Below are positions 31,747 to 39,577 of a stretch of 64,000 bases of DNA, piece after piece. This DNA is from Rheinheimera sp. (lineage in GTDB: Bacteria; Pseudomonadota; Gammaproteobacteria; Enterobacterales; Alteromonadaceae). The position numbers and the translations under genes were made by a program. Where the stretch lies: NCBI RefSeq assembly GCF_003543135.1, contig NZ_DPJG01000016.1. One strand, written 5' to 3'. The notes beneath the pieces were generated by a model, which was not told where the DNA came from, ran no database searches, and saw only the letters and a list, made by a program, of their open reading frames with translations. Numbering within the stretch: the first letter of the stretch is position 1; each line of letters opens with the position of its first letter.

Positions 31747-33396
31747 ATGACCGATTTGAAACGCCAGGCTGAGGCCTCGGAAGAAGCTTTATGGCGCATT
31801 TTCACGGTGCCGGAAGCGCCAGACTCCACGCTCAGTATTATTGAGCAGAATATTTCGCAAAACCTGGCGGGTTTTTTGCGCGAAAGCATAGTGGCAGTGG
31901 AAAAACCACTGTGGCAAATCGAACGTGATTTTCAGGCGTATCAAATTCCGGCCGAGCCAAAATTTGTGTCGGATTATGCCGAAAACATGATGGAAAAGCT
32001 GGTTGCCCATTCGGTGCATACAGCGGCCCCCAGTTTTATTGGCCATATGACCTCGGCTTTGCCTTATTTTGTGTTGCCCCTGTCCAAAATGATGGTGGGG
32101 CTGAATCAAAACCTGGTAAAAATTGAAACCTCCAAGGCCTTTACGCCGCTGGAACGTCAGGTGCTTGGCATGATGCACCACCTGGTGTACGGCGAAAGTG
32201 AAGGTTTTTATAAAAAGTGGTTACACAGCGCCAATCATTCATTAGGCGCTTTTTGCTCGGGTGGCACTGTGGCCAATATGACGGCGCTGTGGATTGCCCG
32301 TAACCGATTATTGCGCCCTGATGGCGACTTTAAAGGCGTGGCCAAAGAAGGTTTATTCCGCGCTATGCGCCATTACGGGTATCAGGATTTAGCCATTCTG
32401 GTGTCGGAGCGCGGCCATTATTCGCTGCGTAAAGCTGCCGATATCCTGGGTATTGGCCGCGATATGCTGATCCCGGTGAAAACCGACGAACACAACAAAG
32501 TCGACAGCAATGAAATGCGCCGCGTTGCCGCTGATTTAGCGGCACGTTCTATCCGCGTGATGGCGATAGTGGGCGTGGCTGGTACTACTGAAACCGGCAA
32601 TATCGATCCGCTGGACGAACTGGCCGATTTAGCCGCCGACTTAAACTGCCATTTCCATGTGGATGCCGCCTGGGGTGGTGCAACTTTACTCTCTGATAAA
32701 TATCGTTATTTACTCAAAGGTATTGAACGCGCTGATTCAGTGACCATAGACGCGCATAAACAAATGTATGTGCCTATGGGCGCCGGTATGGTGGTGTTTA
32801 AACACCCGTCAGCAGCGCATGCCATTGAACATCACGCCGAATATATCCTGAGGAAAGGCTCCAAAGACTTAGGCAGCCAGACGCTGGAAGGCTCACGCCC
32901 CGGCATGGCAATGCTGGTGCACGCCTGTTTGCAGGTGATAGGCCGCAAAGGCTACGAAATTCTGATCAACCGAAGCCTGGAAAAAGCCCGTTATTTTGCC
33001 GGTTTAATCGACCTGCATCCGGAGTTTGAGCTGATCACCGCCCCTGAGCTTTGTTTATTAACCTACCGTTATGTGCCAGCCAAGGTGCAACAGGCGATGC
33101 AAAAAGCCAAAGCAGCAGGCGATACCGAGCGGCTGCAGAAATTTAATGAGCTATTAAGTGGGCTCACCAAATTTATTCAAAAACGCCAGCGTGAAGAGGG
33201 TAAATCTTTTGTCTCCCGCACCCGGTTAAAACCACAAAGATACCAACGCCAGGACACAGTGGTGTTCCGGGTGGTACTGGCCAACCCACTGACGACAGAC
33301 AATATTTTGCACGAAGTATTGGCAGAGCAAGTGGAGCTGGCGGCGATGGATAAAGAGTTTTTGCCGAAGCTGCTGAGTATGGCAAAGGATGGTTAG
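31747..33396 (+). CDS. panP: Pyridoxal-dependent aspartate 1-decarboxylase PanP
   Basis: APDSTL, FIGHMTSALP, FHVDAAWGG, DAHKQMY and LEGSRPGMA. Confidence 0.88.
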   Translation: MTDLKRQAEASEEALWRIFTVPEAPDSTLSIIEQNISQNLAGFLRESIVAVEKPLWQIERDFQAYQIPAEPKFVSDYAENMMEKLVAHSVHTAAPSFIGHMTSALPYFVLPLSKMMVGLNQNLVKIETSKAFTPLERQVLGMMHHLVYGESEGFYKKWLHSANHSLGAFCSGGTVANMTALWIARNRLLRPDGDFKGVAKEGLFRAMRHYGYQDLAILVSERGHYSLRKAADILGIGRDMLIPVKTDEHNKVDSNEMRRVAADLAARSIRVMAIVGVAGTTETGNIDPLDELADLAADLNCHFHVDAAWGGATLLSDKYRYLLKGIERADSVTIDAHKQMYVPMGAGMVVFKHPSAAHAIEHHAEYILRKGSKDLGSQTLEGSRPGMAMLVHACLQVIGRKGYEILINRSLEKARYFAGLIDLHPEFELITAPELCLLTYRYVPAKVQQAMQKAKAAGDTERLQKFNELLSGLTKFIQKRQREEGKSFVSRTRLKPQRYQRQDTVVFRVVLANPLTTDNILHEVLAEQVELAAMDKEFLPKLLSMAKDG

Positions 33397-33431
33397 CTGT
33401 TTGGCGTAACAGCTTTTATCGCTTCTTGCTG

Positions 33432-33458
33432 AAAACGGCTGCTGTTGCAGCCGTTTTT
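33432..33458 (+). terminator. Terminator after panP
   Basis: AAAACGGCTGC-tgtt-GCAGCCGTTTTT. Confidence 0.85.
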
Positions 33459-33598
33459 GTTTTTATGTTTAGCAACATGGGGCTGGTGTTGGCTTTTTCG
33501 CAAGCCAAAGGCGTTGCTGGTTGAGCTGATGCCTGCGGACTTGTCATGTCTTTCAGCTTGCAGCTGATGGGGCTATAGAAGCGGAGGTTGTATGGGGG

Positions 33599-33650
33599 TG
33601 AGTGCTACCACATAGGTGACACAGCAGTTCAACCACATAGGTGACAGTGT
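33599..33650. mobile_element. Orphan IS481-like terminal remnant
   Basis: Begins TGA; 15 bp direct repeat ACCACATAGGTGACA at 33607-33621 and 33632-33646, resembling the reiterated transposase sites of IS481 ends; no transposase adjacent. Confidence 0.5.
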
Positions 33651-33681
33651 GTTTTAACAAGCTAAGTGTTTGTTTTATTTG

Positions 33682-33914
33682 ATGCCTGCGGCATGGCGCT
33701 ATGCGGGGTCTCGCCCCCGCAGGCGAGTCTCTTTCTTTGCTGACAAAGAAAGAGACGCAAAGAAATCACCCCGAGATCGCTCGAAAGCCCGTTGTTTTGA
33801 CACAATTTTGAGGCGCCGCCAAAACTCGGCAAGCGCTAGCGTCGCTTGCCTCAAACAGTTGGCGTCTTAAAACCTCAAAATCGGCCAAAACAACGGCTCG
33901 CTTGACGGGGCCAA
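33682..33914 (+). repeat. ~230 bp nested-hairpin element, copy L1
   Basis: Inverted homologue of 34869-35099; hairpins at 33727-33756 and 33828-33850 plus a long outer stem CCCCG...CGGGG. Confidence 0.9.
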
Positions 33915-34149
33915 GAGCGCTGCTGTCGTAAATTGGCTATTTATGGTTTGTGTCATTTGCTGACTATTAACAAATCAACGCTCACGAAAATTTCAATACT
34001 TCACGCGCTGCCAAAAAGTTAAAAAATCATGCATTATTCATGACGTACTTCAGCTAATTACCCGTGTTCAGACTTTAACGATTCCGTCAAAATAAGTTGG
34101 CCACAACATTATGACTCCCAGTGAGGGAAATGGGTTGGGAGAAAGATTA

Positions 34150-34659
34150 ATGGATTTAAAAGAAAAACTCGCATTGTCATCTGCTCTCGTTGCAGTCCTC
34201 GTTGTTGGTTCTGCTTTCCTTTTTAGAGGTGAGGATACCGTCATTCTGCGATTGCAGAATTGGTCAACGGAGACGTCATTCCAAGTAGCTAGAAAAGAGC
34301 CTGAGAGCCTTTCGATACCATCGAAAGGCAACCTGGGGGCTTTTTATAAATGTATGAGTAGATACTTTGATGGCTCAGAAAGGAATTCAGGTTTGCCGGT
34401 AACAGGGAGACCTGGGTATTTCTCACTTGTACTGGATGAAAATACTGAAATGAAAATCGGCTTTGTTTCTACTCAAGCGGGTTCGTTTACAATTTATACC
34501 CGTGATTCTTCAGGCAAAATTACAGGAGCTTCTCTTCGGTACGCGATAAGCTGTGATCATCGATTGTTAAACACTCCTGAAAGCGATATGCATTGTGTTG
34601 ATAAAGTAATTGGAAATGAAATCCGACCGGTTTGTACATACCAGCCGAAGCAACTTTAG
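34150..34659 (+). CDS. Orphan hypothetical protein with N-terminal membrane anchor (cargo between L1 and L2)
   Basis: GGGAG SD sequence, then MDLKEKLALSSALVAVLVVGSAFLF; the ORF track starts upstream at 34111; no recognisable family. Confidence 0.7.
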   Translation: MDLKEKLALSSALVAVLVVGSAFLFRGEDTVILRLQNWSTETSFQVARKEPESLSIPSKGNLGAFYKCMSRYFDGSERNSGLPVTGRPGYFSLVLDENTEMKIGFVSTQAGSFTIYTRDSSGKITGASLRYAISCDHRLLNTPESDMHCVDKVIGNEIRPVCTYQPKQL

Positions 34660-34868
34660 CCCCCAATAGTCTGTAAAAAGTTAGTTGACGTACAAAGCTC
34701 CAGTTTAAAAAAAGATGCTTTTTTTCCTCGATAATTTTTGGCAATGCATTGGGTTCATGAAAAACGAATGACCGTAATTAAGGCAAAGTAGGTATTCGTT
34801 TTTCAAATATCTCCGCTTTTAAACAACCGCTATTTGCTCAACACAGAAATTTCCAAGCAGCTCTGCTG

Positions 34869-35099
34869 TTGGCCCCGTCAAGCGAGCCGTTGTTTTGGCT
34901 GGTTTTGAGGTTTTAAGACGCCAACTGTTTGAGCGGGGTGACGCTAGCACCCCGCGAGTTTTGGCGGCGCCTCAAAAGCGAGTCAAAACAGCGGGCTTTC
35001 GAGCGATCTCGGGGTCGTTTTTTATGTCACTTTTTGTCGACACAAAAAGTGACTCGCCCGCGGGGGCGAGACCCCGCATACGTGCCATGCCGCAGGCAT
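34869..35099 (-). repeat. ~230 bp nested-hairpin element, copy L2 (inverted)
   Basis: Reverse complement aligns end to end with 33682-33914; differences cluster in stems and are compensatory. Confidence 0.9.
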
Positions 35100-35353
35100 T
35101 AATAAAATCAGAATTACCAATAAGTTAACCTGATTCGGCCGCCGCGGTTAAACCCGGCATACGCGCCATGCCGCTGGCATCAAACACAACAAAGCTTAGC
35201 AACCAACGCTGCCGGGTTGGTTAGGCAACACCAAGCATCAGCTCAAAACCCAATACCAAATCGGCAAAGTCACAAAACTCAACAACAACCCAAAACCCAC
35301 CAGGTTCCCCACCATCCTGGGGGCCAGGCCGGCCATAATGGCGATGGCGCCGG
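35060..35353. repeat. 294 bp direct repeat, left copy
   Basis: Colinear and same length as 39284-39577; about 4 scattered substitutions plus one 22 nt divergent patch. Confidence 0.95.
35238..35353 (-). pseudogene. Duplicated 3' fragment of the AEC transporter gene
   Basis: Nearly identical to 39462-39577 including the TGA stop; encodes ...GAIAIMAGLAPRMVGNLVGFGLLLSFVTLPIWYWVLS*; no 5' part. Confidence 0.9.
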
Positions 35354-35358
35354 TCCTC

Positions 35359-35470
35359 AGGGTCAGGTCTTGCCTTTTGCCTAATCCTAACCCCTTTGGG
35401 ATTAAAAGCTAAACCTTATTAATTAGCCTGAATCAAACTCACTAAAAGGCAAAAAGCAAGACCTGACCCT
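35359..35470. mobile_element. 112 bp MITE-like element with 24 bp terminal inverted repeats
   Basis: AGGGTCAGGTCTTGCCTTTTGCCT (35359-35382) and AGGCAAAAAGCAAGACCTGACCCT (35447-35470), 23/24 complementary; no ORF; no clear TSD. Confidence 0.65.
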
Positions 35471-35486
35471 ACTGGTTGTGGTTGCA

Positions 35487-35963
35487 TTATTCGCTTTGGA
35501 AAACAACACGCTCGTATTCATGAACAGCCGATTTAACCGGCTCCCAAATCGTTACATAGCGCCCATCCGAGTCAAATATCTTCCCATGATTGCGGTCCGC
35601 AGCGACCTTCATCTGGATAAAATTGGATGCGAACCATGAATTATTGCCTATATGAGAATGAATGTCTTCTTCAGTAATTTTCTCAAGGCCAGACCGCTTA
35701 AGTTCAATGTAAGCATTAAGTATTTGGGAATTGTATTGTGACTGTCGTTCTGGCTTTGACCACATTTTCAATCGCCGAACTACTTTAGCTATCTCGGCAC
35801 TAGATTCTCTTTCAACGAAAGTCTCTTGTTGGTTTGTGTTTGATTTAATCTTATCTACCAAAATTAAGCATTTCACCAACTTAGAATGTATTTCTTTTCG
35901 ATCTGAATCATCCACAAGCATGAATGCGGCTTCTTCAAGTTCACTTCTCAATTCATCAAGCAT
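35487..35963 (-). CDS. Hypothetical soluble protein (AT-rich island gene)
   Basis: GGAGG SD sequence, 158 aa, C-terminal SNFIQMK..DRNHGKIF..IWEPV; function unknown. Confidence 0.75.
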   Translation of the reverse strand: MLDELRSELEEAAFMLVDDSDRKEIHSKLVKCLILVDKIKSNTNQQETFVERESSAEIAKVVRRLKMWSKPERQSQYNSQILNAYIELKRSGLEKITEEDIHSHIGNNSWFASNFIQMKVAADRNHGKIFDSDGRYVTIWEPVKSAVHEYERVVFQSE

Positions 35964-36193
35964 AAAGACCTCCCAAAGACGTAATTAGTCTAATTTAGTC
36001 TATTATAAGCATCAATAAACATTTTTCATATAGCTGTTATCATGCAGACTTCTCAGCCGCACTACAGATGCTCATCAAGTCCGGTCAGTAGTGATAAAAC
36101 CGATTTATAGTTTCACTCAGAGATGTCCGCTTTTGGCACAAAGCAGCTGATGGCCATCCAATGCCTTGGTCTGAATAAAACGAATACTACAGA

Positions 36194-39283: not shown

Positions 39284-39577
39284 GCGGGGGCGAGACCCCG
39301 CATACGTGCCATGCCGCAGGCATTAATAAATTCAGAATTACCAATAAGTTAGAGCGATTAGGTAGTCGCAGTGAAACCCGGCATACGCGCCATGCCGCTG
39401 GCATCAAACACAACAAAGCTTAGCAACCAACGCTGCCAGGTTGGTTAGGCAACACCAAGCCTCAGCTCAAAACCCAATACCAAATCGGCAAAGTCACAAA
39501 ACTCAGCAACAACCCAAAACCCACCAGGTTCCCCACCATCCTGGGGGCCAGGCCGGCCATAATGGCGATGGCGCCGG
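39284..39577. repeat. 294 bp direct repeat, right copy (includes the 3' end of the intact AEC gene)
   Basis: See 35060-35353. Confidence 0.95.

Follow-up and report, generated by a model that had tools for sequence, protein, structure and literature searches.

The window analysed here is a 64,000-nt stretch of a Rheinheimera sp. genome (assembly GCF_003543135.1, contig NZ_DPJG01000016.1; C15:12154-76153 in our numbering of this genome, G000, which has 34 contigs and 3.99 Mb). At its panP-AEC transporter locus, the window holds a single foreign-looking gene between two inverted, structured DNA repeats, the left arm L1 (33670..33921, + strand) and the right arm L2 (34862..35110, - strand). The arms belong to a widespread foldback (palindromic) DNA repeat family that is apparently undescribed. 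The best explanation, to which we give about an even chance, is that the arms work as folded DNA, insulate the slot between them transcriptionally and serve in Rheinheimera as landing and exchange platforms for integron cassettes, by means of the integron integrase (IntI) in trans and homologous recombination. An earlier note on this DNA, made from its letters alone, had recognised the inverted pair; it missed the size of the family, which spans two proteobacterial classes, and the link in Rheinheimera to integron cassettes and their integrase. Other genomes, contigs and loci are cited below by numbers with the prefixes G, C and L (the last with three digits).

The two arms face each other and align end to end. 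Aligned by MAFFT, 33660-33930 and the reverse complement of 34850-35120 share 89% column identity, and a repeat search recovers the pair as two inverted matches, 33760-33925 with 34858-35023 (166 nt, 86%) and 33700-33747 with 35033-35080 (48 nt, 88%). Every hairpin quoted in the earlier note is present and the pair stands as described there, but its ends had to be moved, as the arms are longer (33670-33921 and 35110-34862, with extensions to 33968 and 34805). Both arms were delimited by nhmmer hits and alignment, L1 covering model positions 1-251 and L2 251-1. Folded as single-stranded DNA, L1 reaches -66.2 kcal/mol (z = -6.1) and L2 -61.1 kcal/mol (z = -5.5), and none of 200 shuffles is as good in either case. 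L1 begins with a T-rich lead, followed by a hairpin, H1, that resembles a repetitive extragenic palindrome (REP; 33682-33694), by two mutually exclusive 5′ folds at 33703-33727 (GCGGGG/CCCCGC and CTCGCC/GGCGAG), by hairpin H3 (33727-33756; GTCTCTTTCTTTG/CAAAGAAAGAGAC in L1 and GTCACTTTTTG/CAAAAAGTGAC in L2) and by a long branched hairpin, H4, with the outer stem CCCCG...CGGGG (33769-33909); a stem TTTTGAGG/CCTCAAAA is also formed. The central hypervariable stem (33828..33850, +) surrounds the conserved loop GCTANCGTC and reads GGCAAGCG-CTAGCGT-CGCTTGCC in L1 and GCGGGGTG-CTAGCGT-CACCCCGC in L2. Five of its eight pairs differ between the arms, and each difference is compensated.

Compensated change is the rule throughout the family. 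In an alignment of 59 distinct arms, with structure by RNAalifold, the arm is a ~250-285-bp chain of hairpins that includes a long branched hairpin with 37 pairs, 27 of which have at least one sequence changed on both sides. Paired cells amount to 94.4% versus 72.3% in column shuffles, double-change cells number 481 versus 162 expected, and the covariation score is 0.535 versus 0.161 in shuffles (none of 500 as high) and 0.07-0.15 with slid partners. Entire stems have been swapped yet remain complementary. The central stem, helix 8 of the alignment, exists in ~18 versions, with double changes in seven of nine pairs and 96.4% of cells paired, and the stem of the hairpin that faces inward covaries among subfamilies as CGCC/GGCG, CACC/GGTG and TGCC/GGCA. 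The loops CTCGAAAGCCCG, AACTCG, GCTANCGTC, CTCARACA, TTAAAACCT and CGGCTCGCT are invariant, internal loops hold the most conserved bases, and the arm tips are the least conserved part. Selection on the fold rather than on the sequence, as first proposed from the two window copies, is thus upheld by the family at large. Protein-coding arms were considered and rejected (12 of 59 have any open frame, in inconsistent strand and frame), and a look by eye for IHF, dif and K-turn motifs in the conserved loops found none conserved across subfamilies.

The manner in which these stems vary bears on whether DNA or RNA is folded. Changes on one side only hardly occur, and G:U pairs account for ~1% of cells and A:C mismatches for a similar share, so that neither strand is favoured. 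Typical RNA families do not show such a near-absence of one-sided and G:U changes. The low G:U content and strand symmetry favour a constraint at the level of DNA, or templated correction in DNA hairpins, over one on RNA. The alternative that survives best is nonetheless a structured non-coding RNA, in which the arm would be a leader of the terminator/antiterminator type or a stabilising untranslated-region element, transcribed with or toward the cargo, and DNA pairing would be a by-product. Such an RNA would account for the very strong covariation, for the conserved unpaired loops and for the two mutually exclusive 5′ hairpins, both of which have compensatory variants and one of which is terminator-like. 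It is at odds with the rarity of G:U and one-sided changes and with the lack of strand preference, and no sigma-70-like promoter site occurs in 33300-35300 (0 versus 1.9 expected). Against Rfam 15, the region 33000-36000 gave two hits at E <= 1, both at chance level and neither relevant, so the direct match to an Rfam family that might have removed the novelty did not appear. In addition, mirror arms place a sense arm at one end of the cargo mRNA and an antisense arm at the other. On this evidence the RNA alternative, which the earlier note had left open, is not favoured, and we consider it unlikely.

A search with L1 of its own genome and of relatives, as had been suggested, established that the arm is not unique. 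G000 has 27 matches, ~10 of them near full length, several at contig ends and many comprising the outer 40-65 nt only; this outer module stands alone at many G000 sites (query positions 1-40 to 1-65). Family matches occur in 15 of 24 sampled congeneric Rheinheimera genomes. When one genome per prokaryotic species was scanned for the core motif AACTC-N7-GCTANCGTC-N7-TCRRACA, at least 118 stretches were found, in Rheinheimera, Alishewanella and eight Chromobacteriaceae genera. The betaproteobacterial genera with the motif, among the matches listed, are Chromobacterium, Aquitalea, Vogesella, Chitinibacter, Pseudogulbenkiania, Craterilacuibacter, Crenobacter and Deefgea, and an nhmmer profile of Rheinheimera arms matches the betaproteobacterial copies over positions ~35-245. 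Searches of 72,556 plasmid records and 50,697 phage records recovered no copy of the family, and the literature on Rheinheimera and Chromobacterium repeats, transposable elements of the miniature inverted-repeat type (MITEs), integrons and inverted-repeat cassettes yielded no description of the family. An asymmetric variant of ~800 bp was also seen at L090, L098, L117, L144, L152 (Neisseriaceae bacterium JH1-16) and L151 (Crenobacter). One of its arms is canonical and the other shares the outer hairpins only, with a different inner fold without the GCTANCGTC loop, and halves of a TTCGGCCAACGTTGGCCGAA palindrome lie at both ends and at the centre.

The arms recur as convergent pairs around unrelated cargo or around nothing, which agrees with the proposal that L1, the gene and L2 form a non-autonomous gene-carrying cassette. 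Across all fetched loci, some of which overlap and so inflate the counts without biasing them, neighbouring arms form 91 convergent, 7 divergent and 38 tandem arrangements. The spacing between inner ends is bimodal, with 39 non-redundant pairs at 0-202 bp and 21 at 655-1820 bp. The short class is a ~550-bp "empty" foldback element with a recurrent 51-53-bp centre in several species. All filled units sampled come from Rheinheimera, and the Chromobacteriaceae pairs sampled are all empty. Cargo genes are mutually unrelated and have a GC content of 0.38-0.43, below that of the genome (0.49) and of the arms (0.54-0.55). Their products match Pfam families for a MerR/TipAS regulator, HEPN, a DUF5343 and Swt1-type HEPN pair, DUF2971 and a UDG-superfamily protein, and four of ten scanned cargo proteins have no Pfam family. 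No transposase or recombinase lies between the arms in the ~60 pairs examined.

In the window, the cargo is an 835-bp foreign segment (33969..34803, +) with a GC content of 0.40. Its bounds come from two contigs without arms. An 84-kb metagenome contig (L206) carries an 83%-identical homologue of the cargo protein beside a KAP-type NTPase gene, and its DNA similarity to the window spans exactly 33969-34803 at 89%; the second (L218) is 93% identical, with a match that begins at 33956. The cargo is thus a discrete foreign unit of ~835 bp at the palindrome apex. Its open reading frame (34111-34659) encodes 182 aa with an N-terminal hydrophobic stretch, while public collections list a 169-aa product starting at 34150. 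The protein has no Pfam or NCBIfam match and only five homologues among 5.8 billion proteins. By eye, it distantly resembles the 158-aa cargo of the G014 unit L060 (GNLGAFYKC in the window, GQLGKFFNC in L060), and the two cargoes also appear to share a 3′ hairpin module. The window cargo ends in hairpin Q (GAAAAACGAAT...ATTCGTTTTTC, 34759..34804). Hairpin Q is common to three cargo units with different genes (the listed loci are the window, L060 and L177), and on the armless contigs it occurs on both sides of the cargo, with a loop that in one case is ~75 nt longer. Its role could be that of another type of recombination site, or just that of a terminator.

Between cargo and arms lie two diverged inner extensions of the arms, which reach out to 33968 and 34805. 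Allele X (33922..33968, +) is on the upstream side of the window cargo gene, contains GGTTTGTGTCA, ends in TATTAAC and is similar to the opposite arm and to a second locus, L056, up to 33955; allele Y (34805..34861, -), defined by junction comparison, is on the downstream side and contains TTGAGCAAATAGCGGTTGTTTAAAAGC. This polarity recurs elsewhere. In 21 units, with some overlapping loci among them and with motifs chosen by hand, an X motif (TTTGTGCCA-like) lies upstream of the cargo gene seven times and downstream once, and a Y motif (TTGAGCGAAA-like) never lies upstream and lies downstream six times. Since X is mostly upstream and Y only downstream, cargo orientation is non-random with respect to the element, which suggests directional insertion of the cargo.

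Comparison of loci among genomes points to turnover. The alternative alleles that the earlier note had suggested looking for at the panP-AEC locus exist: G018 carries a different unit, with a 165-aa cargo, mosaic arms and different content at the left junction; G014 retains only an outer-hairpin (H1) footprint, which has the look of an internal deletion; and in G006 and G042 the intergenic region is short, cannot be aligned and bears no trace of the element. At L056 in G018, arms that match L1 and L2 at 91% and 97% identity stand between other flanks with a MerR-like cargo, and there the X/Y extensions and the gene are inverted together. L1 and L2 are each nearer to arms at other loci than to one another. 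Downstream of ung, five relatives present a full element, an internally deleted mini-element in which each arm retains its outer 85 nt, remnants with a single arm, and unrelated DNA. These patterns fit recombination between arm copies together with decay by deletion between palindromic hairpins.

The link to integrons is physical. G000 encodes a chromosomal integron integrase of 326 aa outside the window (G000:C2:28995-29975; TIGR02249, 470.9 bits against a cut-off of 265), with at least five attC sites in a classical array upstream of intI, within G000:C2:23000-29975 (locus L194), and a family arm starts 50 bp past the intI stop codon. G000 therefore has the integrase that an integron calls for. 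Located by nhmmer profiles of the attC types of the same genome, attC sites lie on contigs C2, C5, C22, C25, C26 and C34, and an arm stands at the array edge on all but C5, where the array is at the contig start. Three cassettes on C34 end 60 bp from an arm, an attI-region copy on C25 abuts an arm, the order on C26 is arm, gene, attC site, and the filled unit L178 has a complete attC after its gene. A ~240-bp platform, P, occurs only directly inside arms (C22:155-396, C33:169-351, C3:62236-62473, C34:341643-341827) and ends in GATTAAGTTGTTAGGC. At C22, C33, C3 and C34b, the sequence runs from the arm through P and GTTAGGC to cassettes with attC. P folds like a long attC, with TTATAAC...GTTAGGC closing a hairpin that has two internal hairpins. 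In the complete genome G018 together with G014, ~12 of 14 P/attC clusters lie 0.1-1.5 kb from an arm on its inner side, in matching orientation. An open reading frame with its own attC and G^TT boundaries, the make-up of an integron cassette, is found in units L178, C26, C34 and C22, and the window cargo lacks it.

Several observations stand beside this link. The C34 arm that lies 60 bp from the three cassettes is split by an IS110-family insertion sequence (G000:C34:313893-314954, locus L007; Pfam DEDD_Tnp_IS110 and Transposase_20) that breaks it near model position 85-94. This element may target the hairpin, in or next to H3, as IS110/IS1111 elements do with REP and attC. In an orthologous arm-headed array, G014:C6:23500-27000 (L204) has ~1.75 kb more between the arm and a shared MITE and gene than G000:C26:23273-24650, a difference that would be a sign of cassette gain or loss among closely related species. 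Two readings of the arm sequence itself were rejected. Arms are not attC sites, in that the R″ (RYYYAAC) and R′ (GTTRRRY) boxes are not conserved across subfamilies, the arms are convergent and true G000 attC sites differ; and the arm stems GTTGTTT/AAACAAC, considered as IntI core sites, are subfamily-specific.

We propose the following sequence of events, the last two steps of which we infer from patterns in the data, including the role of IntI and the homologous exchange. The arms, which encode no enzyme, would act in cis as folded DNA, as hairpins or cruciforms in single-stranded or supercoiled DNA. Terminator-like hairpins with T-runs facing both ways would then insulate the slot from panP and the AEC transporter gene and make it a safe harbour. 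Each arm has one such hairpin facing inward and one facing outward, so the slot is probably insulated. The inward hairpin of L1, found in a terminator scan, is CTCGCC-CCCGCA-GGCGAG followed by TCTCTTTCTT (33710..33727, +), with its mirror image in L2 at 35070-35053 (-), and the outward hairpins with their T-runs lie at 33786-33769 (-) in L1 and 34997-35014 (+) in L2. Cargo would enter at a defined point at the inner end, in an orientation fixed relative to X (upstream) and Y (downstream), and a defined entry point with fixed orientation points to site-specific insertion. In Rheinheimera, the agent would most likely be the chromosomal integron integrase in trans, since an arm lies next to nearly every attC array, to platform P and to intI itself. 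Finally, cargo would be swapped between slots and strains by homologous recombination in the arms, which is possible because arm copies share 75-97% identity over ~250 bp. A more far-reaching version, which we put forward tentatively and hold to be less probable, is that the arms are portable structured bookend platforms that seed cassette arrays without an integrase, with arm and P together forming a satellite equivalent of attI served by IntI in trans, insulating captured genes and letting them be exchanged between strains.

A number of observations weigh against the platform explanation. Among element-bearing genomes outside Rheinheimera, IntI is above the cut-off in only 3 of 15, and for this reason IntI cannot explain the spread of the arms. 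The arm stems with GTT/AAC in this subfamily are replaced by other sequence in other subfamilies. In place of a canonical attC, the window cargo shows just a weak remnant of 63 nt, TTAAC...GTTAA, at 33964-34026 (-10.5 kcal/mol), and its junctions as set by L206 and L218 are not at a G^TT crossover, so the part of IntI in the window unit is unproven. The association with cassettes could reflect survivorship, in which insulated intergenic slots tolerate foreign DNA and nothing is targeted to them. Arm mobility is indicated indirectly, by a patchy distribution, the many copies and the presence of arms in two classes. No target-site duplication can be defined at the panP, ung or JH1-16 junctions, no clean empty site was found at the panP locus or downstream of ung, and no autonomous copy was found. 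Insulation is deemed probable from consensus scans for hairpins with T-runs only, and the overlapping loci and hand-chosen motifs behind the pairing and polarity counts weigh on this side as well.

The patchy presence among species, the many copies and the inverted arms can also be read as the marks of a conventional non-autonomous transposon, either a MITE or a mobile insertion cassette (MIC), whose arms would be long terminal inverted repeats bound by a DDE-type or other transposase encoded elsewhere and which would transpose as a whole unit. The same arm pair does occur at a different site in G018 (L056), the JH1-16 variant has clear outer 13-bp inverted motifs, and precedents exist in MICs, integron mobilization units (IMUs) and TIME-COMPs. 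Against it, the tips are least conserved and internal loops hold the most conserved bases. The junctions examined show neither a target-site duplication nor a clean empty site, the ~60 pairs contain no transposase, the arms of one unit are not mutual closest relatives, and plasmid and phage copies are lacking. We judge a transposon of this kind improbable.

The tight association with attC arrays, P and intI might instead mean that the arms are giant atypical sites of the attC/attI type, recombined directly by the integron integrase. They are folded imperfect palindromes with conserved bulges, cargo polarity is fixed, and X ends in ATTAAC, the complement of which, GTTAAT, fits five to six of the seven positions of the core GTTRRRY. 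R″/R′ boxes are not conserved across subfamilies, however; the arms are inverted around the cargo where attC sites are direct, the family thrives in genomes without IntI, and the window junctions are not at G^TT. It is thus very unlikely that IntI recombines the arms themselves.

The suggestion in the earlier note of single-stranded DNA substrates for a trans-acting HUH/Y1 transposase, as in REP/REPIN-RAYT or IS200/IS605-TnpA systems, is scarcely credible: a fold kept rather than a sequence, an outer module H1 that is a REP-like 13-nt palindrome also found solo, and an inverted doublet resembling REPINs (REP doublets forming hairpins) speak for it, but Pfam Y1_Tnp (PF01797) and arms do not co-occur in 31 genomes of the genus, the element-rich G014, G021, G019 and G003 have no Y1_Tnp hit at the search threshold while several element-free genomes have strong ones, G000 has only a 53-aa Y1_Tnp fragment containing a stop, and arms are 6-10 times longer than REP units. 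Judged from these genome surveys, the multiplier of the arms is not a RAYT, and the spread of the arms does not need IntI.

Returning to arms as folded-DNA platforms, the family is nearest in kind to REPIN/BIME repeats (BIME, bacterial interspersed mosaic element) and to MITE-flanked cassettes, and it fails the defining tests of each. Like REP, REPIN and BIME repeats, the arms are intergenic, multi-copy and non-coding, are built of hairpin modules that occur solo or in mosaics, form inverted doublets with compensatory hairpin changes, and lie between convergent genes with terminator-like features. They differ in being ~250-285 nt long and branched with conserved loops, versus 20-40 nt for REP, in having no RAYT, in carrying whole genes at the apex and in that the two arms differ in their variable stems. 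With MICs, IMUs and TIME-COMPs, the units share non-autonomous inverted repeats around passenger genes, integron cassettes among them, and the lack of an internal transposase. Those elements, however, have short terminal repeats of IS or Tn3 type, target-site duplications and a parent transposase that is known; none of the three was found for the arm family. They are mostly plasmid-borne, whereas the arms were found on chromosomes only.

The cargo side resembles clusters of attC sites lacking integron-integrases (CALINs), with promoter-poor, low-GC, single-gene cassettes that carry attC away from intI, have a fixed orientation and depend on IntI in trans. Cassettes also reportedly insert at non-classical genomic sites (attG), as is attributed to Loot and colleagues in 2024. 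In contrast to CALINs and attG insertions, a large structured inverted arm, together with an attC-like P, heads the arrays described here and sometimes closes them too, and some slot cargo, including that of the window, has no canonical attC. A further parallel is found in Neisseria, where NIME/dRS3 repeats (NTS; NIME, Neisseria intergenic mosaic element) with Ssn nucleases, and minimal mobile elements, likewise place repeated hairpins around variable genes between conserved genes; the arm family also occurs in the related Chromobacteriaceae. The Neisseria repeats are much shorter than the arms (~20 nt) and have a known cognate GIY-YIG nuclease, which sets the arm family apart. For them, an action on single-stranded DNA and an influence on exchange through transformation and homologous recombination have been proposed (PMC11893778).

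If the platform explanation is true, Rheinheimera stores integron cassettes not only in its integron but also in many small insulated slots set by a structured DNA repeat. This would bear on the origin of CALINs and isolated cassettes and on their harmlessness to neighbouring genes. On the less probable bookend version, the arms would be a previously unrecognised vehicle that accounts for the origin of CALINs and solitary cassettes, superimposed on a family of repeats whose spread crosses proteobacterial classes. Slot cargo includes HEPN-type, other defence-like and orphan genes, which makes the slots places to seek new accessory functions. Apart from the integron link, the arms constitute a large family of 250-nt folds, with hypervariable stems round invariant loops, in two proteobacterial classes. 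The partner protein of the arms, whether a nuclease, a recombinase or a binding protein, is a concrete target for discovery.

The surroundings of the window unit contain further pieces of the family. A solo copy of the outer ~40 nt of an arm, with an CAGCTTGCAGCTG-type H1 and the start of the next hairpin, was read directly at 33553..33590 (+) and looks like a footprint or a partial arm copy. It is followed by module Z (33601..33650, +), two tandem 25-bp units (ACCACATAGGTGAC) identified by repeat search in a flank common with L056; Z precedes an arm in the window, at L056 in G018, in G014 and at G000 contig C26. On the other side, a second solo fragment (35131..35193, -; repeat search, genome match C15:47305-47345) comprises a REP-like H1, ATGCCGCTGGCAT, and ~30 nt of arm. 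More solo outer-arm fragments, covering model positions 1-50, lie at 39284-39330 and 39373-39416 (compare 35060-35110 and 35131-35193). These open the 294-bp direct repeat around a neighbouring 3.9-kb island that contains genes for an ECF sigma factor, an anti-sigma factor and a beta-lactamase-like protein, so the repeats of this island begin with pieces of the arm family. Lastly, a separate MITE of ~112 bp with terminal inverted repeats GGGTCAGGTCTTGC lies at 35359-35470 in the window. Further copies of this MITE sit within cargo slots (L060, L074) and at G000:C26, and it occurs in or beside slots in several genomes.

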